A stretch of DNA of 64,000 nt from Candidatus Pacearchaeota archaeon (GTDB lineage: Archaea > Nanobdellota > Nanobdellia > Pacearchaeales > GW2011-AR1), in assembly GCA_038869755.1 (NCBI GenBank), contig JAWCQN010000001.1, positions 33,876-97,875 of the forward strand, in the 5' to 3' direction. Of this stretch, positions 17,253 to 25,912 are shown piece by piece. Made by a program: the position numbers and the translations under genes. Position 1 is the first letter of the stretch; each line of letters opens with the position of its first letter. Below the pieces are notes generated by a model. It was given only the letters and a program-made list of their open reading frames with translations, did no database searches and had not been told where the DNA came from.

Positions 17253-18549
17253 AACTTCTCTAATAACCTAGTTTATTTAAATTTAATCAAAAATCCAAAA
17301 ACAATTGGAATCTTTTTACTTTATTAAGAAAAGATTAAACATCATAGATTTTAAATAACTTGATTAAGATCTAAATACGAATAAAACTCTCTTTTAGTTT
17401 TAATTGGATTATTAATAGTGAGGATGGTTAAATTTTTTATATCAAATAATTTATTTTCTAATTCAGGCGTTAGTACTAATTATTCTCTTGACATTATAAA
17501 AATGAAAAAAAATAAAAAACTTTCATCTTGATGGGGAGAATTTTAAATTTATCATGGATGGTGTAGAAAACTGATATCAGGGTTAAAAAAAGAGGTAAAG
17601 TAGAAATTGTTTTTGAGTCTTATTGTAGTGTTGGAAAGTATGGGGGAGAGAAAATGGTGTGAAGAGTAAATTAATAGTTGAGGAGTTTTCTAAGAGATGT
17701 TTATTTAATTTTACAACTTAACCACTATCTTCTTCAAATTCATTATAATTAAGCACTACCAATATAAGTTAAATATTTTAATTATTAATTAAATATTTTA
17801 GACATGTTTTTTTAAGGAAGGATATTTTTGAAAAAGGAGTATTTTTCCTTCATTTTTAGAGTGCTGACAATATATCTTGTGCGTAATTTTAAGTGATTTT
17901 TAGCCTATTTTTAAGTTTTTTATGAATTTGTGCGAACTTTTTAGCTTATTTTTAGTGGTACTAAAAGTTTTAAGTATTAATTAAATATTTTAAGTATATT
18001 TTTTAAGCCAATTATATCATCTTCAGTCTTGATTTAAACTATCTATGTATTAAACTATCTACATATCTTGAGAATCTTGAGGCCATTCTTTTATTTCTTA
18101 TAACTATTTCATATAATTAAGACCATAACTATATTGTTTGAATTAGTTCGGATTATAACCTTAAAAAGAATAGCTATTACTCTAAGTATAATCCAAAAGG
18201 TTAGAAAGTGATGAAAAATTGTTAAAATAGAACATATTTGAATTTATGGTTTTTCATACAATCAAAAAAATACAAAAAAATATTTAGAATAACACCGAAA
18301 ATAATAAAAATAGGCTATGCTAAAACTTTTAAGCAAAGATTAAAATTTTTAATAAGCTTAGTTTAAATCTTGATTTAGAGAAGTATAAGAAATATAGTCA
18401 TTATTAGTATTATATATTAAGCCCCGAATATGTTGATTAAATCCAATTAGACTAAGTAAACTAAGTAAAAAATAAGAAAAAACCTAAAAAGTGTTTTATT
18501 CAAAATTTTAGCAAGAAACCGGTATTTTCCAGCTATTCAAAATAAAATT

Positions 18550-18717
18550 TTATTTTATTAGCTTGTAATTCCTTATAAGCTTGGCTATACCTATGACTAA
18601 AACTGCAATTGCTATCAGCCACGGATTATATATTGCCAACTGAGGCAACACATTGGCAGCTTCAAGCAAGAGCAATAGCCCTATAATAGTTACAAGCCAT
18701 GCAGTTAGTTTTGCCAT
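18550..18717 (-). CDS. Possible small hydrophobic protein (55 aa) inside the ORF-free region
   Basis: MAKLTAWLVTIIGLLLLLEAANVLPQLAIYNPWLIAIAVLVIGIAKLIRNYKLIK. Two TM helices. Not in the ORF track (<60 aa). Confidence 0.3.
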   Translation of the reverse strand: MAKLTAWLVTIIGLLLLLEAANVLPQLAIYNPWLIAIAVLVIGIAKLIRNYKLIK

Positions 18718-19169
18718 TTTCTCTCCTTTATATTTTCCATTTTTTTATGTGTTTTTTTGTGTGTTTTGAACTAATAAAACATGGCCAGCCTAATAATTCC
18801 TAAAAATCTTTACAAAAGAAATTTAGAGTAAAACCGATCGTGTAAATTAGGATATCCAACCTAATTTCAAACAATTTTTAGCTCTTTTTTAGCTTAATAA
18901 TCTTAATATTTTAGAGATTTTAAAGTTTTCTAATTTTGATTGTACGAACTTAAGAGGAATTAATAAACCTGAAGAAACAGACTAATTTTTGTCGAGTTAA
19001 TTTTTTAAAAATGAATTTTTTTAAATAGTTAATTAAAAAAATAACAAAAAATATTTGTTTAAGCGATTTAAAAAAACAGAAAAACCTTATTTTTTGTTAA
19101 ATGTTCTGTGTTAACCTTTACTATTATTTGACTATTTTTGAACATCCTTAGTTTTTATTTTTATCGACG

Positions 19170-19230
19170 ATAAACAGCTGTTTAAGGCTGTTTAAACAGC
19201 TGTTTAAACAAAAAATGATGGTGTTTAAAC
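19170..19230. promoter_or_regulatory. Cluster of palindromic iteron-like motifs (AAACAGCTGTTTAA / GTTTAAAC), about 120 bp upstream of the wHTH gene
   Basis: GATAAACAGCTGTTTAAGGCTGTTTAAACAGCTGTTTAAAC ... GTGTTTAAAC. The same core recurs inside the downstream ORF at about 19611-19625. Confidence 0.45.
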
Positions 19231-19348
19231 TATATAAATTAGTCTTTTTATGGTATTTTTAGTAGATTTTTATATAGTTAATTTATATGATTTATTTAGT
19301 TTTTAGAAAGGTTTAAATAGTATTCTTCGTCTATAAATATTAAACAAT

Positions 19349-19981
19349 TTGTATTTTAATAAAATGTTTGAATGGTTTTTTGGAAAAAAGGATAAAAAAG
19401 AAGCTGATGAAATAAAAAAAGAAGTCAGAAATTCTTTTTCACTTGTAAAAAAAGATATAAATAAAATAACTACGTGGATTAATCACCTAAATGAATATGA
19501 TAAATCCTTAAGTAATGAAGTAAATAGTGTTAAAGAAGAAATATCGAATATAAATGACCAGATAGAACAAATAAAAGATTTAATCTCTATGATATCTGAC
19601 GGGTTTAATAAACAGCTGTTTAAAACATCAACGCCTGTTTATCGTAAACAAACAGGTGTTGATGTTGTTCAAACAGGTGTTCAAACAGGTGTTCAAACAG
19701 CTAATTTTTACGGATTTTCTAACTTGTCTGCAACAGAAAGAGCAATAATATGGATATTAATCAACAATGATTTAAAATTAAGTTATGATGATTTAGCAGC
19801 AATGTTAGGAAAAACAAGGTCAACAATAAGAGGGCAAATAAATAGTATAAAACAAAAAAGTGTGGGATTAATAGAGGAGTATATTGAAAAAAACGGAAAA
19901 AAGAGGGTTTACATACCTGAAGAAATAAAACAAAAAATATTGAAAAAGACGAAAGTGAGAGTTAAAAAAGATAAAGAGTAG
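19349..19981 (+). CDS. Coiled-coil + C-terminal winged-helix DNA-binding protein with an in-frame tandem repeat (QTGV x3)
   Basis: N-terminal heptad-rich region. 12-nt tandem repeat CAAACAGGTGTT x3 at 19648-19701 (QTGVDVVQTGVQTGVQT). C-terminal HTH-like SATERAIIWILINNDLKLSYDDLAAMLGKTRSTIRGQINSIK. Confidence 0.55.
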   Translation: MYFNKMFEWFFGKKDKKEADEIKKEVRNSFSLVKKDINKITTWINHLNEYDKSLSNEVNSVKEEISNINDQIEQIKDLISMISDGFNKQLFKTSTPVYRKQTGVDVVQTGVQTGVQTANFYGFSNLSATERAIIWILINNDLKLSYDDLAAMLGKTRSTIRGQINSIKQKSVGLIEEYIEKNGKKRVYIPEEIKQKILKKTKVRVKKDKE

Positions 19982-20325: not shown

Positions 20326-20988
20326 TTATTTAGACTCTCTTAGTAGTAGAATTGTATCTAAAGAAGCTAATTTTTTAAAATCGTCAGGGATATGGAGGAT
20401 GATATGTTTATTATTCTCTTTAGTTTTTATCAAAGGGGCCCCTTTATTTAAGATCCTTTGAACATAATCTCTAATGGAACTTTGGGAAAGAGATAATTTA
20501 GTAGCAAGGAAGTGATAATCTATAGTCGTTTGGTTGTTGTCATATTGGTAAATCGTTGAAAAAACAAGCATTTCCTGATTGGTTAAACTTTTGATTTTAT
20601 CTTTAAGTTCTTGTCTTAAACCATCTATTTGGTTTATTATTAGTGTTGATAAATTTCCTTTTTCACTTAATTTGTCTGTCTGTCTGATTGTCTGTCTGTC
20701 TGTCGAAACCCCTTCATTTCCTATGGAATTTTTTATATTTTGCCTTTTTAAGGCTTGAAATGGTAAAATATCTGTCGAAGTGTCTGTCGAAGTAACTTTA
20801 TGTGTCGAATTTGTCTGTCGAAGTGTTTGAACTTCAATATTAAGTGTCGAATTTAATTTAGTTAGATTAAGAATAGATGTTTGTATCTCTTCTAATTCTT
20901 TTTTTATACTATTTATTTCTATTTTTAAATCATATATATCTTGTTTTACCTTGTTAAATGCTTCTTTTATTTGATCCATTTTTTTCAA
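20326..20988 (-). CDS. Paralogous coiled-coil + winged-helix protein with in-frame STD/TDxS short repeats
   Basis: Same architecture as 19349-19981, convergent to it. DNA repeats TGTCTGTCGAAG/TGTCTGTCTG at 20683-20710 and 20771-20860 encode STDTSTD...STDRQTIRQTD. C-terminal wHTH-like LVFSTIYQYDNNQTTIDYHFLATKLSLSQSSIRDYVQRILNKG. Confidence 0.55.
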   Translation of the reverse strand: MKKMDQIKEAFNKVKQDIYDLKIEINSIKKELEEIQTSILNLTKLNSTLNIEVQTLRQTNSTHKVTSTDTSTDILPFQALKRQNIKNSIGNEGVSTDRQTIRQTDKLSEKGNLSTLIINQIDGLRQELKDKIKSLTNQEMLVFSTIYQYDNNQTTIDYHFLATKLSLSQSSIRDYVQRILNKGAPLIKTKENNKHIILHIPDDFKKLASLDTILLLRESK

Positions 20989-21780: not shown

Positions 21781-22041
21781 CTACCTTAAATCTTCTTCAG
21801 AAATGACAACAAAATCGCCAATAGCCATAATTGAGTTATGAGGTACTAATAATTCTCCCTGACTAGATCTTTCTAAGTTTAAATTCTGAGAATAAGGAGT
21901 AGCATTTTTAATGACTAATTGAATTAATTCACCTGTTCTAGTCTCAAAAGTAAGGTCCTGAACAATACCAAGTCTTTTACCCTCTTTAGTCACAACCATC
22001 TTACCAACAAGATCTCTAAGTGGTCTTTTATCACTTACCAT
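21781..22041 (-). CDS. PRC-barrel domain protein
   Basis: L.GK.VVTKEGKRLGIVQDL.FETRTGELIQLVI ... IMAIGDFVVISEE is the typical archaeal stand-alone PRC barrel. Confidence 0.7.
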   Translation of the reverse strand: MVSDKRPLRDLVGKMVVTKEGKRLGIVQDLTFETRTGELIQLVIKNATPYSQNLNLERSSQGELLVPHNSIMAIGDFVVISEEDLR

Positions 22042-22439
22042 ATTTTGTAGAAATTAAGTTAATATTTAAACTTTTCTGTAGTCACCAAGTATTTTTAGTG
22101 TTTTTTGTTTTATTTTTTCTTAAATTTAATAATTTTAATACTTTTATTTGAAATTTATAAGTATTTAATCAATTATAAAAAACTAAAAAGATGAATAAGT
22201 ATAGTTAATTTTAAATAAAAGATATTATATTCAAAAAATATATTTAATAGTGGTTAAGAATTGAAATTAATATACATAATAGTGGTCAGGAAAAAGTTAT
22301 AACTATTTTTTTATGTAGTTCTTTTTAGGCAATATATTAGAAATAATAAAAAAATAGGTTTTAAAGAGTATTTGATTTTGTTTATTTTTTCTCTTTATTT
22401 TACCCTACCCCTTTATTTCATATAGAAATATTTAAAAAA

Positions 22440-22600
22440 GAAATGTTATTTTTTTGTTTTTAAAATTTATTTATAAATATTTATATATTATATAATACAT
22501 ATTGTATTATATTTATTCTATTAAATATATTATATTAATTTTATTTTAGCATACATACTAAATTACATATGATATATTATATATAATAGATAATCTAACT
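22440..22600. other. Near-pure A/T stretch, candidate DNA-unwinding element
   Basis: About 160 bp with only a handful of G/C. It lies within the 990-bp ORF-free region upstream of orc1/cdc6. Confidence 0.45.
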
Positions 22601-22747
22601 TATTTATTTTAATATATCTTATATCAAAATCTTATTTATTCTATATAACCTGCTGTTTTAATATATCTTATATCAAAATCTTATTTATTCTATATAACCT
22701 GCTGTTTTAATATATCTTATATCAAAATCTTATTTATTCTATATAAC
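22601..22747. repeat. Three perfect tandem 49-bp direct repeats (AATATATCTTATATCAAAATCTTATTTATTCTATATAACCTGCTGTTTT)
   Basis: Read directly; copies start at about 22601, 22650 and 22699. No spacers, so not CRISPR. About 290 bp upstream of orc1/cdc6. Confidence 0.85.
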
Positions 22748-23032
22748 CTGCTGTTGTATACTTAAAATATACTTAGTATGTAGACTTAGCTTCAATATTA
22801 ACCTTTAACTTTTAGCATTTTTTTTCCAAGAGAAATCATGGTGTGACTCTTTTTAATAAACTAAAGATTATATAAACTCTTATTAAATTGTACTAAAATT
22901 TATGGTAATACTTTTATTCGATAAGTGAACGTCTTATTATTTTTAATCAAAAGTTTAATTAATGTCTCCATATGAAATGAAGGTACTATTTTTTTCTATA
23001 ATAAAATTTATACAAAACTTTATAAAATATAT

Positions 23033-24292
23033 TTGGATTTAGACTTATACATTAAATTAAAAAGGGATGAAATGGACTTAAAAGTTAATTCAAAGGTAGA
23101 TAAAATTTTTGATTCTTTTATGGATAATAAGATTTTTCAGGACAAATTTGTTTTACAGACAGGTTATACTCCAAGTACTATACCTCATAGAGATGAGCTT
23201 ATTACCCAAATTGCTTCAATACTTGCCCCTTCATTAAGGGGTGAAAAAACCAGTAATCTTTTTGTTTATGGTAATACAGGGACCGGAAAAACACTTTCTA
23301 TTCAGTATGTAAGGGACGAATTACTAAGGAGAAACAACCATTTAAAAAATAACTTAGTAATAGAGTATGTAAATTGTAAATTAAAAAAAATATCAGATAC
23401 TGAATACAGGATTTTTGCGGAATTAATAAAAAAATTAGGAGGAAATGTTCCTGCAACAGGGTTGCCCACAGATCAGGTTTATAATAAGTTTATAGAATTA
23501 GTAGATAGTGGTAAAAAATTAATTATCTTAGTTTTTGATGAAATCGATCATGCAGTTGATAAAATATCAGATAATTTTTTATATAATTTAACAAGAATTA
23601 ATTCTGAATTAAAAAAATCACAAATAAGTATTATTGGAATTAGTAATAATTTAACTTTTTTGGAAAATTTAGATCCAAGAGTAAGAAGTTCATTGAGTGA
23701 AGAGGAAATTGTATTTCCACCATATAATGCCTTACAACTTAAAGATATATTAAAAGAGAGGGCTGAAAAAGCCTTTAAGAAAGGGGTTTTAGATGAAGGA
23801 GTCATTTCAAAATGTGCTGCCTTTGCAGCAAAAGAACATGGAGATGCAAGAAGAGCTTTGGATTTATTAAGAATTGCAGGAGAAATTGCAGAAAGGAAGA
23901 ATTCAGATAAAATAACTTTAGACGATATTGATTTAGCCAATGATAAAATTGAAAGAGATAAAATATTAGATAGTGTCACAAATGCTCCAAAACAATTCCA
24001 ATTATCTTTATTGGCAATAATAAGTTTAGTTGAGAAAAATAAAATCAAAGAAATATTTACAGGAGAAGTTTATAATGAATACCAAGATTTATGTAAAATT
24101 ACTAAAACAGAAGTTTTAACACAAAGAAGGGTTTCAGATATATTATCTGAATTTGATATGATGGGAATAATTAATTCAAATATTATTTCTAAAGGAAGGC
24201 AAGGAAGAACAAGAAAGATTAGGCTATCAATACCAGTCAAATTAATTCCAAAAGTTAAAGAAAACTTATACGAATCTCTTAATTTACCTTAA
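23033..24292 (+). CDS. orc1: Orc1/Cdc6 replication initiator
   Basis: AAA+ Walker A FVYGNTGTGKT, Walker B ILVFDEID, sensor motifs, C-terminal winged helix. Confidence 0.9.
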   Translation: MDLDLYIKLKRDEMDLKVNSKVDKIFDSFMDNKIFQDKFVLQTGYTPSTIPHRDELITQIASILAPSLRGEKTSNLFVYGNTGTGKTLSIQYVRDELLRRNNHLKNNLVIEYVNCKLKKISDTEYRIFAELIKKLGGNVPATGLPTDQVYNKFIELVDSGKKLIILVFDEIDHAVDKISDNFLYNLTRINSELKKSQISIIGISNNLTFLENLDPRVRSSLSEEEIVFPPYNALQLKDILKERAEKAFKKGVLDEGVISKCAAFAAKEHGDARRALDLLRIAGEIAERKNSDKITLDDIDLANDKIERDKILDSVTNAPKQFQLSLLAIISLVEKNKIKEIFTGEVYNEYQDLCKITKTEVLTQRRVSDILSEFDMMGIINSNIISKGRQGRTRKIRLSIPVKLIPKVKENLYESLNLP

Positions 24293-24316: not shown

Positions 24317-25912
24317 ATGGATCAAGAAATTATACAATTTTGCAATCAGAGAGGTATTTTACTAGATAAGTATCTGATTAAACAATTAACTCATTTTAAT
24401 AATAATTATCTTTTAAAAAATTTGTTAGATAGAATTACCCTTCAGTATAAACAAAAAATAATTACTAAATCTTTTTTTAACGACAAAAAAAAGATTATTG
24501 AAATCTTATCTAACTATAATAATAATGAGCGTATCATTTTAGAGGATTTTTTTGAAAGTTTGGGAATAGATACTAATTTTTTTAATAACAAATCACCTTC
24601 AGACTATTCTTTTATTACCAATAATGAAAGTGGAGAGGTATCTATAAATAAAGTTTACCATAATAAGCCAAGGAAATTAAGTGTTGAAGATTTTATTAAT
24701 AATTTTAAAAACAGGTTTTTATTTTTGAAAAATATATTACAAGAGAGACCAGATCTTGATAATTTAGTTTCTATAAATAAGTTAGAAACATCTACAAATA
24801 AAAATTTTTCATTAATAGGCATAGTTTATGACAAACATACAACAAAAAATGGAAATGTCTTATTAACTATTGAAGATCTAACCGGTTCAATAAATGCATT
24901 GGTTAATAAAAATAAGAGTGATGTATTTGAGAAATCTAAAGAGATATTGTTTGATGAGGTAATAGCTTTAAAATGTTCTGGAAGTAAGGAAATGGTTTTT
25001 GTTAATGATATAATATTTCCTGATTCAAGAATTATAACTAAAAAAAAATCAAATTTTGAAGAATATGCCGCATTTACTTCAGATATTCATGTTGGAAGTG
25101 ATAAATTTTTGGAGAGCAATTTTATTAAATTTATTAATTGGCTTAATGGGAATATTGGTGATGAAAATCAGAGAAGAGAGGCATTAAAAGTAAAATATCT
25201 TTTTATAACAGGAGATTCAATAGATGGTGTTGGTATTTATCCCGGTCAAGAGTCACAATTAATTATCAAAGATGTTAATGAACAATATAAAAAATTAGCA
25301 GAATTGTTACTTGCTATCAGGCCTGATGTCAGCATAATTTTGTGTGCTGGACAACACGATGCTGTCAGAGTGGCAGAACCCCAACCAATTATTGGAGAAC
25401 ATTATGGTTCATCTTTAAATCTCATTAATAATTTATATTTAGTAAGTAATCCCTCAATTGTAAGTATAGGAAGGGATGTTAAGTTTAAAGTTTTAATGTA
25501 CCATGGAGCCAGCATTCACGGGATAATAAATGAAATTGATAGTTTAAGAATTAATAAGGCACATGATTCTCCAACCTCTGTTGTAAAGTATATGTTAAAA
25601 AAAAGACATTTGGCTCCAACTCACTCATTAGTAACATATACTCCTTTAGAGAAAGAGGATGCTTTATTAGTGAGTGAAATCCCTGACATACTGGCAACAG
25701 GAGATTTACATAGGCCAGAGATATCAGATTATAATGGAGTCATTTTGATAGCATCAAGTTGCTGGCAGTCTAAAACACCCTTTGAAGAGAAAGTAGGCAA
25801 TAATCCTGATCCTTGTAAAGTCCCTTTATTTAATCTTAAAACAAGAGAAATAAAAATTCTTGATTTTAGCGATAATTTAGTTGAGGAGAAAAAGATGGAA
25901 AATGCAGACTGA
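24317..25912 (+). CDS. polB... (DP1): DNA polymerase II (PolD) small subunit DP1
   Basis: N-terminal OB domain. C-terminal calcineurin-like phosphoesterase motifs (FTSDIHVGSD, ITGDSIDG, ATGDLH). Adjacent to DP2. Confidence 0.85.
   Translation: MDQEIIQFCNQRGILLDKYLIKQLTHFNNNYLLKNLLDRITLQYKQKIITKSFFNDKKKIIEILSNYNNNERIILEDFFESLGIDTNFFNNKSPSDYSFITNNESGEVSINKVYHNKPRKLSVEDFINNFKNRFLFLKNILQERPDLDNLVSINKLETSTNKNFSLIGIVYDKHTTKNGNVLLTIEDLTGSINALVNKNKSDVFEKSKEILFDEVIALKCSGSKEMVFVNDIIFPDSRIITKKKSNFEEYAAFTSDIHVGSDKFLESNFIKFINWLNGNIGDENQRREALKVKYLFITGDSIDGVGIYPGQESQLIIKDVNEQYKKLAELLLAIRPDVSIILCAGQHDAVRVAEPQPIIGEHYGSSLNLINNLYLVSNPSIVSIGRDVKFKVLMYHGASIHGIINEIDSLRINKAHDSPTSVVKYMLKKRHLAPTHSLVTYTPLEKEDALLVSEIPDILATGDLHRPEISDYNGVILIASSCWQSKTPFEEKVGNNPDPCKVPLFNLKTREIKILDFSDNLVEEKKMENAD

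Follow-up and report, generated by a model that had tools for sequence, protein, structure and literature searches.

The 1030-bp spacer at positions 22042-23071 (16.6% GC) of the window analysed, a 64-kb stretch of a Pacearchaeota (DPANN) contig, is likely to be a chromosomal replication origin of the oriC1 type, in which a conspicuous array of 49-bp repeats probably represents a young minisatellite lodged in the variable part, and not an initiator-binding element. As read from the sequence, the spacer very probably has the ordinary archaeal build, with predicted initiator boxes placed around an easily melted AT tract. The original prediction of an origin beside orc1/cdc6-polD is thus supported by origin recognition boxes (ORBs), a duplex unwinding element (DUE), a layout conserved among relatives and a switch in A/T skew within the 64-kb window, while the atypical architecture that it proposed is not supported, three canonical ORBs facing each other around the DUE.

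Gene context of the spacer

Pacearchaeota, members of the DPANN archaea, are uncultured organisms, and the one studied here has a GC content of roughly 30%. The context of the spacer is chromosomal, with 5S rRNA, tRNAs and PolD all on one contig. No ORF of 60 aa or more was detected between 22042 and 23032 in an ORF scan, as had been predicted, and Rfam recognized no RNA family in the spacer, whether the window was searched with the gathering threshold or the 17.2-23.1 kb region with E<=1. The PRC-barrel gene flanks the spacer on the left in the closest relatives too (loci L034/L035, whose Orc1 shares 87% identity), as it does in many further loci. Its promoter shares 90.6% identity over 32 nt with L034/L035 (blastn) and lies about 20 nt from the ATG, a distance at which the mRNA is probably leaderless.

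On the right, Pfam matches bear out the earlier statement that orc1/cdc6 and both PolD subunits lie directly downstream, arranged on the + strand in the order orc1/cdc6, DP1 and DP2 (Table 1). The Orc1 product that starts at ATG 23072 (406 aa) is on record and is 100% identical to an NCBI Pacearchaeota protein, whereas the version starting at TTG 23033 remained unmatched in the exact-protein look-up, so that ATG 23072 is taken as the true start. Its Cdc6_C and Cdc6_lid domains were recognized with E-values of 9.9e-29 and 5e-27, respectively, and its best solved relatives are Orc1-1 of S. solfataricus (2qby_A, E=1.6e-101) and ORC1 of A. pernix (2v1u_A, E=1.1e-93).

Table 1. Features of the putative origin and its surroundings (window coordinates; PWM, ORB matrix score; A1, alignment A1).
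Feature	Position	Strand	Evidence or remark
Satellite ORB (AATTCCATAGGAAATGAAGGGGTTTCG), followed by (ACAG)n	20704..20730	-	PWM 29.0, second-best of the window
PRC-barrel protein gene	21781..22041	-	Pfam PF05239, E=4.5e-10; left boundary of the spacer
PRC-barrel gene promoter, BRE/TATA-like (TTAATATTTAAACTTTTCTGT on +)	22059..22079	-	conserved block in A1
AATAGTGGTYA word pair, 32 nt apart	22246 and 22278 (22246..22288)	+	no evidence of function
ORB-L (ATTTCTATATGAAATAAAGGGGTAGGG on - strand)	22403..22429	-	PWM 21.6; inverted partner of ORB-R
AT-rich DUE	22427..22600		least GC-rich and, by nearest-neighbour energy, least stable DNA in the 64 kb
49-bp x 3.0 perfect tandem array (unit TTTTAATATATCTTATATCAAAATCTTATTTATTCTATATAACCTGCTG)	22607..22755	+	TRF score 298, 100% match
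ORB-M (TTTTCCAAGAGAAATCATGGTGTGACT)	22822..22848	+	PWM 31.3, top score of the whole window
ORB-R (GTCTCCATATGAAATGAAGGTACTATT)	22964..22990	+	PWM 18.9; just upstream of the orc1 promoter
orc1 promoter, BRE/TATA-like (ATACAAAACTTTATAAAATA)	23010..23029	+	conserved block TTATACAAAACTTTATAAAA in A1
Initiator gene orc1/cdc6 (Orc1-1 / oriC1 type; 406 aa)	23072..24292	+	Pfam Cdc6_C, Cdc6_lid, AAA
PolD small subunit DP1	24317-25912	+	Pfam PF04042
PolD large subunit DP2	after DP1, to 29369	+	Pfam PF03833, PF24844, PF24846

Predicted initiator boxes, unwinding element and strand polarity

ORBs were searched for with a position weight matrix (PWM) derived from relatives only, for which the maximum in shuffled sequences averages 14. 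Three of its four top matches in the 64-kb window fall in the spacer (31.3, 21.6 and 18.9). These elements combine a TTCC-N4-GAA core with a GG(T/G)GT/GGGG tail in a facing arrangement around the DUE, the consensus for Pacearchaeota being aTTTCCATAaGAAATnAaGGtGTgagt. ORB-L and ORB-R deviate from TTCC at one position each (TTCT and CTCC), and the G-strings are short or degenerate (GGGGTAGGG, GGTGTGAC and GGTAC). In Pyrococcus, the TTCC and GAA motifs are perfectly conserved in both ORBs and mini-ORBs (PMC1904270).

ORB-L adjoins the DUE with its core while its G-string points outward, its columns are invariant in alignment A1, and blastn shows it to be conserved along with the DUE in over 15 loci (75-83% identity). 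ORB-M faces it across the DUE and the 49-bp array, and has orthologues in L034 (TTCCACTAGAAATCGAGGTGTGAGGT) and in L037-L039 (TTCCATTGGAAATAGGGGTGTAGGGT). ORB-R, which precedes the orc1 BRE/TATA by about 25 nt, agrees by eye at 11/15 positions with the mORB of S. solfataricus Orc1-1 (GATTTTCAGATGAAACG; PMC3089459), and most relatives keep a + strand ORB between about -80 and -125. Lying where it does, ORB-R might act in autoregulation besides being an origin element. The closest relatives keep all three ORBs and the DUE. More widely, 47/49 related loci carry, upstream of orc1, an ORB(-) and an ORB(+) that face each other across an AT-rich gap, with the layout of one ORB(-), the DUE, one or two ORB(+) and orc1, and an inter-ORB gap of 222 nt in the median (range 111-600). 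ORB matches concentrate between -1000 and 0, being nearly absent elsewhere.

The region 22440-22600, described earlier as almost pure A/T, contains 15 G/C in 161 nt (9.3% GC) and is therefore not pure, but it does belong to the lowest-GC region of the window and stands as the candidate DUE. The lowest-GC 161-mer of the 64 kb is 22427-22587 (7.5% GC), and the least stable 100-mer, 22448-22547, shows a dG of -89 kcal/mol relative to a mean of -118.5 +/- 6.9 over the 64 kb, that is, 4.2 SD above the mean (less negative values being less stable). A conserved core at about 22457-22503 (TTTATTTATAAATATTTATATATTATATAATA...) appears as a run of invariant columns in A1, and in most relatives there is a comparable tract, 65-185 nt long, whose GC content is 4% or less.

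The duplicated AATAGTGGTYA word, originally placed at 22248-22295, was also considered as a mini-ORB and rejected. Both words exist, though at 22246 and 22278, and their frequency does not exceed that of shuffled sequences (4 matches at <=1 mismatch versus 2.8 expected); they are not conserved in A1, and no ORB PWM score above 4 was obtained in this segment.

In the model proposed here, Orc1/Cdc6 produced from the downstream gene would bind ORB-L on the - strand and ORB-M and ORB-R on the + strand, with the cores of the boxes facing inward and their G-rich tails outward. The bound initiators would thereby bracket the roughly 170-bp AT-rich unwinding element, at which duplex opening and MCM loading would take place, and Orc1 on ORB-R, just upstream of the orc1 promoter, might also regulate its own gene.

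Strand composition was evaluated within the 64-kb window. An unbiased change-point analysis of strand-corrected third-position A/T skew placed the best change-point at 24.3 kb and the second at 22.4 kb, with the RSS falling from 425 to 185, a reduction reached by 0/300 permutations. To the right of the change-point T exceeds A on the + strand, and the seven nearest relatives with both flanks available show the same sign. More distant relatives show mixed signs on short flanks, and the skew pooled over relatives is not significant (-0.018 +/- 0.022), since these flanks span only 3-6 kb. The GC3 skew step is small and its change-point cannot be localised in the window, while raw cumulative GC skew rises monotonically throughout and is uninformative because it is dominated by the coding strand. 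A T-rich leading strand is not a universal rule, Firmicutes being discordant (PMC8941118), so that the sign alone cannot separate an origin from a terminus, and with 64 kb analysed a stronger skew switch may lie elsewhere on the chromosome.

These observations also bear on a reading of the spacer as a purely divergent promoter and regulatory region, in which the ORBs would act as Orc1 operators for orc1-polD, with replication beginning at another site or from no fixed origin. The closeness of ORB-R to the orc1 BRE/TATA and the conserved promoters at both spacer ends agree with it, as do accounts of non-initiator Orc1 paralogues that regulate transcription in Sulfolobus (PMC9738581) and of T. 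kodakarensis replicating without Cdc6 or an origin (PMC5663688). Nonetheless, promoter control does not need a conserved AT core of ~170 bp between facing ORBs, the locus coincides with the switch in A/T-skew polarity, and its Orc1 belongs with the Orc1-1 initiators. One spacer could, moreover, serve both regulation and replication initiation, and the promoter-only reading is regarded as very improbable.

A further ORB, with the orientation of ORB-L, lies 2.3 kb away inside a coiled-coil/wHTH coding sequence (20326-20979, - strand). Matches of this satellite type recur in at least 15 of the 37 loci scanned; 15 matches lie between -2.0 and -2.5 kb, all on the - strand, and a few are further out. 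The element is conserved at synonymous sites, and its rare codons are fixed, TCC, GGG and GAC each appearing in 8/8 cases against backgrounds of 5%, 21% and 21%, respectively.

The 49-bp tandem array

The three exact 49-bp repeats announced at 22601-22747 are real but lie 6 nt further right, with copies at 22607-22655, 22656-22704 and 22705-22753. The array abuts the DUE and fills the non-conserved spacer between it and ORB-M, stretching the inter-ORB gap to 392 bp compared with the median of 222 bp in relatives, a widening that the putative origin evidently accommodates. Its unit has 18% GC, moderate complexity and a CCTGCTG block, and no other copy of it occurs in the 64-kb window, nor any in shuffled sequences.

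Perfect identity of the copies, along with an array length (149-152 nt) that would be close to read length and assembler k, raises the issue of a spurious duplication introduced by assembly in AT-rich low-complexity DNA. Contigs of relatives likewise tend to end in this spacer, the 900 nt upstream of orc1 holding 21 contig ends compared with 8 on the downstream side (p=0.024). Such an artefact is countered by the Logan unitigs (k=31) of run SRR27730039, an independent assembly in which two separate unitigs end precisely k-1 bases into the array, one at either edge. The reads must thus contain the junction inside the array (CTGCTGTTT...) as well as the one at its exit (CTGCTGTTG...). Unitigs break in this manner at a genuine repeat in a de Bruijn graph, and hence at least two copies are present in the reads; the complexity of the unit also argues against this explanation. 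Any doubt touches only the copy number, and not the existence of the repeat: an array of ~150 nt, near the k of common assemblers and the length of reads, may have been collapsed to 3 copies by assembly. An assembly origin of the triple repeat is accordingly the least credible of the alternatives considered.

The original prediction had the array standing in for G-string ORBs. Its unit, however, contains no ORB-like sequence, with best PWM values of -16 to -18 on either strand (22596-22760) compared with 19-31 for the ORBs, and canonical ORBs are present in the spacer. Folding of the array as single-strand DNA revealed no structure (z=0.16). A binding protein shared with the wHTH genes had also been suggested from the likeness of the repeat core CCTGCTGTTTTAA to the palindrome AAACAGCTGTTT/CAGCTGTTTAAAC, but 2 mismatches in 12 are at chance level. 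Perfect palindromes were found only at 19172, 19194 and 19610, and the match in the array is like other scattered ones, so this candidate was rejected.

The conservation data point in the same direction. Absence of the repeats from related genomes that retain orc1 had been named at the outset as counting against a role in the origin, and this is the situation found in L034/L035, where orc1, the ORBs and the DUE are kept and the array is missing. No homologue of the unit was detected in 88 loci, and the repeat junction had no exact match in viral contigs.

On these grounds the array is best read as a recent, slippage-type and lineage-specific minisatellite, and its non-conservation suggests that it is nearly neutral. 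It consists of head-to-tail 49-bp copies with 100% identity in non-coding DNA, and its presence differs between lineages (A1), in line with prokaryotic minisatellites/VNTRs, whose 10-100 bp units are repeated perfectly in tandem outside coding sequences, vary in presence between close lineages and can be different at one locus across lineages. It differs from them in sitting inside a replication origin. Slipped-strand or unequal-exchange events probably gave rise to it at a place where the origin would be free to vary.

The array might instead be made of functional iteron-like elements, serving as sites for Orc1 or for a lineage-specific protein, such as one of the neighbouring wHTH proteins, or extending a T-rich unwinding platform contacted by Orc1 in single-stranded form, which would make the architecture atypical. 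Like the iterons of plasmid and viral origins, it is formed by head-to-tail direct repeats beside an AT-rich region and next to an initiator gene; it lies inside the ORB-bracketed origin, abutting the DUE, its AT-rich composition gives it low stability, and A. pernix Orc1 prefers T-rich ssDNA (PMC8287685). Unlike iterons, it is embedded in a chromosomal context, lacks the recognition sequence of the cognate initiator and is absent even from the closest relatives, which share that initiator and whose origin skeleton is intact. Iteron units measure about 17-22 bp, in contrast to the 49 bp found here. An inter-ORB spacing as variable as that of the related loci also speaks against a functional array.

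Perfect but unrelated repeats occur in other lineages, mostly in the same spacer (31x2.1 and 40x2.7 in L004, 34x2 in L006, 41x2 in L060 and 31x2.1 in L062). The repeat of L060 sits just outside its ORB(-), and the unit of L062 itself carries an ORB core, which favours the iteron-like reading. So does the recurrence of near-perfect long-period repeats, of which 8 were counted in 45.6 kb (<=900 nt upstream of orc1) versus 7 in 442 kb elsewhere. This 11-fold enrichment over all DNA nevertheless shrinks to some 3.5-fold (p about 0.07) once non-coding DNA alone serves as the control, so it is suggestive only, and the units of one lineage show no relation to those of another in sequence, period or base composition. 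Altogether, an iteron-like function is judged unlikely, the young minisatellite being preferred.

Perfect repeats at the spot of the array in about 15% of lineages (6/43 loci) could still reflect a recurrently selected function. The DUE-to-ORB spacer might be a hot spot of initiation-associated slippage, whose arrays would tune origin firing through a T-rich unwinding or ssDNA platform or through the ORB-ORB distance, an idea to which we assign a low probability. If true, an origin-embedded VNTR would be a rapidly evolving replication regulator in ultra-small archaea.

Relation to described origins and implications

The closest parallel is oriC of Pyrococcus and the Thermococcales, where the origin, orc1/cdc6, dp1 and dp2 follow in the same order, ORBs with TTCC/GAA cores form an inverted pair around AT-rich DNA, and an extra ORB occurs in a nearby coding gene, dp1 there and the wHTH gene here (PMC1904270). 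On the contrary, the Pacearchaeota locus has no cluster of many 13-bp mini-ORBs, but three ORBs plus one satellite on the other side, 2.3 kb upstream; its dp1 is devoid of ORBs, no PWM match above 12 being found in 24317-25912; its elements are AT-shifted (TCCATAnGAAAT), the organism being a DPANN archaeon of low GC content; and a 49-bp minisatellite is embedded in its spacer.

With Sulfolobus oriC1 and Aeropyrum Ori1 it shares an initiator nearest to Sso Orc1-1 and Ape ORC1, and a DUE between ORBs of opposite orientation, as in the general definition of such origins (PMC5333045), and its ORB core resembles the Sso mORB. It differs from both in its short or degenerate G-strings and in that its ORBs are predicted from sequence. 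Sulfolobus has, in addition, a ucm/UBP element (PMC12141716).

No description of a DPANN origin was found in the literature searched, which included a search aimed at DPANN origins, and the present analysis provides a concrete and comparatively validated origin model for Pacearchaeota. It corrects the tempting view of the conspicuous 49-bp repeat as a functional origin element, and explains the frequent assembly breaks just upstream of orc1. The ORB kept within a coding sequence by synonymous-site constraint, in parallel with the dp1 ORB cluster of Pyrococcus, is the most testable of its unexpected items. The ORB PWM, in turn, can serve to anchor DPANN MAGs and set their orientation, and as a basis for designing peak-to-trough estimates of growth rate.

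Genes, AT tract and origin recognition boxes of the spacer

The window is a fragment of a Candidatus Pacearchaeota (DPANN) chromosome. Its Orc1 is 100% identical to a protein of an NCBI Pacearchaeota MAG (120,062-bp contig), and the solved structures most similar to it, 2qby_A (1.6e-101) and 2v1u_A (1.1e-93), are both initiators that bind origin recognition boxes (ORBs). A 5S rRNA gene and two tRNA-Leu genes are also present in the window. In line with the original prediction, no ORF of at least 60 aa was found in 22042-23032, and orc1/cdc6 and then both PolD subunits follow downstream, all on the + strand, the gene order oriC-orc1-dp1-dp2 being the same as in Pyrococcus (PMC1904270). The 406-aa Orc1 product on record starts at the ATG, the product from TTG 23033 being absent from record, and the spacer therefore measures 1030 bp, with a GC content of 16.6%. 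The AT tract described within it exists and is extreme, with both the 161-mer of lowest GC and the 100-mer of lowest stability in the entire 64 kb, but its GC content is 9.3% rather than that of almost pure A/T. The duplicated AATAGTGGTYA word is likewise present, though at a frequency only at chance.

A repeat scan detected an inverted pair of TCYATATGAAATRAAGG, whose left copy runs on into GGGGTAGGG on the - strand and has the shape of an archaeal ORB. A position weight matrix was built from 108 instances, taken from relatives only (87 related loci fetched through Orc1; consensus aTTTCCATAaGAAATnAaGGtGTgagt), and scanning of the entire window returned five matches above 12, the mean maximum for Markov shuffles being 14. 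Three of the top four sites in 64 kb are located in the spacer, with ORB-L on one side of the AT tract and, facing it, ORB-M and ORB-R on the other. The TTCC-N4-GAA core corresponds to a motif pair reported as perfectly conserved in the Pyrococcus ORB and mini-ORB (e.g., TTCCAGTGGAACT; PMC1904270), and ORB-R is similar to GATTTTCAGATGAAACG, an Orc1-1 site of S. solfataricus (PMC3089459). The presence of these three facing ORBs, together with the lack of any in the 49-bp array, contradicts the atypical origin first envisaged, in which long direct repeats stood in place of G-string ORBs.

Features of the spacer and its surroundings (window positions)
Feature	Position	Strand	Remarks
Stretch next to small membrane protein ORF	17253-18549		~1.3 kb
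Small membrane protein ORF	18550-18717	-
Palindrome block	19156-19274
AAACAGCTGTTT palindromes	19172, 19194, 19610		perfect, 12 bp
wHTH gene	19349-19981
Linker, first wHTH paralogue	19666-19700		TGTTCAAACAGG x2.9
Coiled-coil/wHTH gene	20326-20979	-
Linker, second wHTH paralogue	20673-20704		(TGTC)8
ORB in wHTH gene	20704-20730	-	AATTCCATAGGAAATGAAGGGGTTTCG; score 29.0
PRC-barrel gene	left of spacer	-
AATAGTGGTYA words	22246, 22278
ORB-L	22403-22429	-	score 21.6
TCYATATGAAATRAAGG, left copy	22410-22426	-
AT tract	22440-22600
49-bp array	22607-22755		exact units start at 22607, 22656, 22705
ORB-M	22822-22848	+	score 31.3
ORB-R	22964-22990	+	score 18.9
TCYATATGAAATRAAGG, right copy	22967-22983	+
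orc1/cdc6, PolD DP1, PolD DP2	right of spacer	+	Orc1 start ATG 23072
Weak ORB match	51132		score 16.1

Conservation in related loci and strand asymmetry

Nearly every one of the 87 related loci has TTTCCAnnnGAAAYnAnGG(T/G)GTGAG elements upstream of orc1, at about -80 to -250 for + strand copies and about -300 to -700 for those of the - strand. Among the 49 loci with enough upstream sequence, 47 have ORB(-) and ORB(+) facing each other across an AT-rich gap, usually as a single - strand ORB opposite one or two + strand ORBs. The median gap length is 222 nt (interquartile range 141-298, range 111-600), that of the window, 392 nt, being the fifth largest. Aligned with four relatives, the spacer shows conserved blocks in the order PRC-gene promoter, ORB-L with a CCCC run, AT-only core (TTTATTTATAAATATTTATAT(T/A)ATATATAATA), ORB-M, ORB-R and orc1 BRE/TATA (ATACAAAACTTTATAAAA), separated by unalignable stretches. 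In over 15 loci, with Orc1 identities of no more than 65-87%, blastn recovers ORB-L plus the core of the AT-rich duplex unwinding element (DUE; 22397-22535) at 75-83% identity.

Raw GC skew climbs through the whole window, mostly following the coding strand, and third-codon-position skews of the 71 ORF-called genes were therefore fitted by regression with gene strand and a left/right step as predictors, every gene boundary being scanned. The best boundary for A/T skew is 24,304, between orc1 and dp1, followed by 22,419, which falls within the spacer; the step lowers the residual sum of squares from 425 to 185, a value that none of 300 gene-order permutations came near (minimum 344). Genes of both strands move alike in the + strand sense, indicating an asymmetry of the replication type rather than codon usage. 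To the right of the boundary T exceeds A on the + strand, the sign predicted for an origin with a G/T-rich leading strand, a rule that is not without exceptions (PMC8941118). The GC3 step is concordant in sign but weak, with no localisable position. Pooled over relatives, whose flanks are short, the effect was not significant; in each of the seven nearest relatives that have both flanks, the sign is that of the window. The skew test is supportive of an origin but not decisive.

wHTH genes, a putative satellite ORB and neighbouring DNA

Two perfect AAACAGCTGTTT palindromes precede a wHTH gene and a third lies inside it, the surrounding block being conserved upstream of the orthologous gene in loci L003, L004, L005, L006, L009 and L010. 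This block probably serves a dimeric regulator as its operator, and the regulation may be autoregulatory. The array core AACCTGCTGTTT differs from this palindrome at 2 of 12 positions, just as unrelated matches elsewhere in the window do, so the suggestion of a protein binding both is not sustained.

Inside the coiled-coil/wHTH gene is the ORB with the second-highest score in the window; an (ACAG)n run follows it, and it encodes SIGNEGVSTDRQT (S-I-G-N-E-G-V-S-T-D-R-Q-T). ORB matches in the bin from -2.0 to -2.5 kb, without exception on the - strand, were found in at least 15 of the 37 scanned loci, a few more lying further out; such an ORB occurs in L003-L006, L009, L010, L019, L042, L046, L049 and L081, at positions of ~-1.9 to -3.3 kb relative to orc1. 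Across the wHTH protein family the peptide motif is invariant. Considering that in 8 distinct DNA versions (i) Ser TCC, Gly GGG and Asp GAC are each used 8/8 times (backgrounds 5%, 21% and 21%) and (ii) free positions vary, the data point to a constraint at the DNA level. This ORB may be a satellite Orc1 site, recalling the cluster of ORBs that Cdc6 binds within dp1 of Pyrococcus (PMC1904270).

The linkers of the two wHTH paralogues are of low complexity, encoded by in-frame microsatellites that yield VQTG repeats in the first and, from coding-strand (GACA)n, TDRQ repeats in the second; linker length varies widely in the family alignment. Further left, 17253-18549 has no ORF of at least 60 aa, no Rfam match at E<=1 and essentially no conservation in relatives' loci, the adjacent membrane protein ORF being the only conserved piece there. 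It could be decayed DNA, lineage-specific DNA or an undescribed RNA.

The 49-bp array and repeats at related origins

The array was confirmed as 3.0 copies at 100% identity, its coordinates lying 6 nt to the right of those first assigned. Its unit occurs nowhere else in the window. No ORB-like sequence (best matrix score -16), no excess of secondary structure over shuffles (z=0.16) and no RNA family match were found in it, and blastn returned no homologue among related loci beyond the Logan contig of its own genome; viral contigs yielded none either. Conservation of the repeat, proposed as a check, did not hold: the closest relative (L034/L035, two independent samples; Orc1 87% identical) lacks the array despite keeping ORB-L, DUE, ORB-M and ORB-R, with ORB-M within about 55 nt after the DUE, and the array falls in an unalignable part of the spacer alignment. 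Unit and adjoining DUE share TTATTTATTCTAT-type words, which would fit a local origin by slippage. In the Logan (k=31) assembly of SRR27730039, one unitig (L088) stops 30 nt into the first copy and another (L001) begins 30 nt before the exit junction of the last; internal and exit junctions thus occur in the reads, and the repeat is real. The ~150-nt array might be short-read assembler output for three or more copies, copy number not being fixed by this k=31 assembly.

In the 900 nt that precede orc1, several other lineages carry perfect or near-perfect repeats of unrelated sequence, the majority between the facing ORBs: 31 bp x2.1 and 40 bp x2.7 in L004 (both 100% identical), 34 bp x2 in L006, 28 bp x4.5 in L017 and 22 bp x2.1 in L082 (both AT-only, within the AT tract), 41 bp x2 just outside ORB(-) in L060, and 31 bp x2.1 in L062, which duplicates an ORB core and starts at the first + strand ORB match. 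Repeat density there is 11-fold that of the remaining locus DNA, but the excess over other non-coding DNA is only about 3.5-fold (p about 0.07), so a repeat hot spot is suggestive only. A different kind of origin-flanking repeat, of 18-19 bp and G/T-rich (TTTGGAGGGATTTGGGGG, present in about 16 copies and alternatively scored as 78 bp x2.6), lies just outside ORB(-) in L008 (58-346), with possible G-quadruplex potential.

Relatives' contigs end within 900 nt upstream of orc1 in 21 cases (L007, L011-L015, L018, L024, L025, L036-L041, L045, L047, L064, L070, L071, L078) versus 8 within 900 nt downstream (p=0.024). This excess is consistent with difficult DNA there, and Pacearchaeota metagenomic assemblies seem to break systematically in the origin region. 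One lineage (Orc1 86% identical) carries a ~230-nt insertion between orc1 BRE/TATA and ATG (L037 ~200-425, L038 ~245-471, L039 ~350-577), with two related GC-richer segments (…CACAGCAAGCTGTGGGGTATTC… and …ATCGTAGCAAGCTAAGGGGTATTAC…), that has the look of a small element, either mobile or structured; the lineage's three assemblies differ from one another directly upstream of ORB-M.

Most probably, the array is a young minisatellite, specific to the lineage, that is tolerated in the variable spacer of the origin, and it is likely to be non-essential. The spacer itself is very probably a replication origin, as predicted, this being borne out by the ORBs, the DUE, the conserved skeleton and the type of Orc1, with skew supportive but not decisive. 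Resting on both of these judgements, the combined reading of an origin with a dispensable array is held with good confidence. As an origin, the locus falls into the classical archaeal ORB-DUE class, of which it is a new and well-conserved example.
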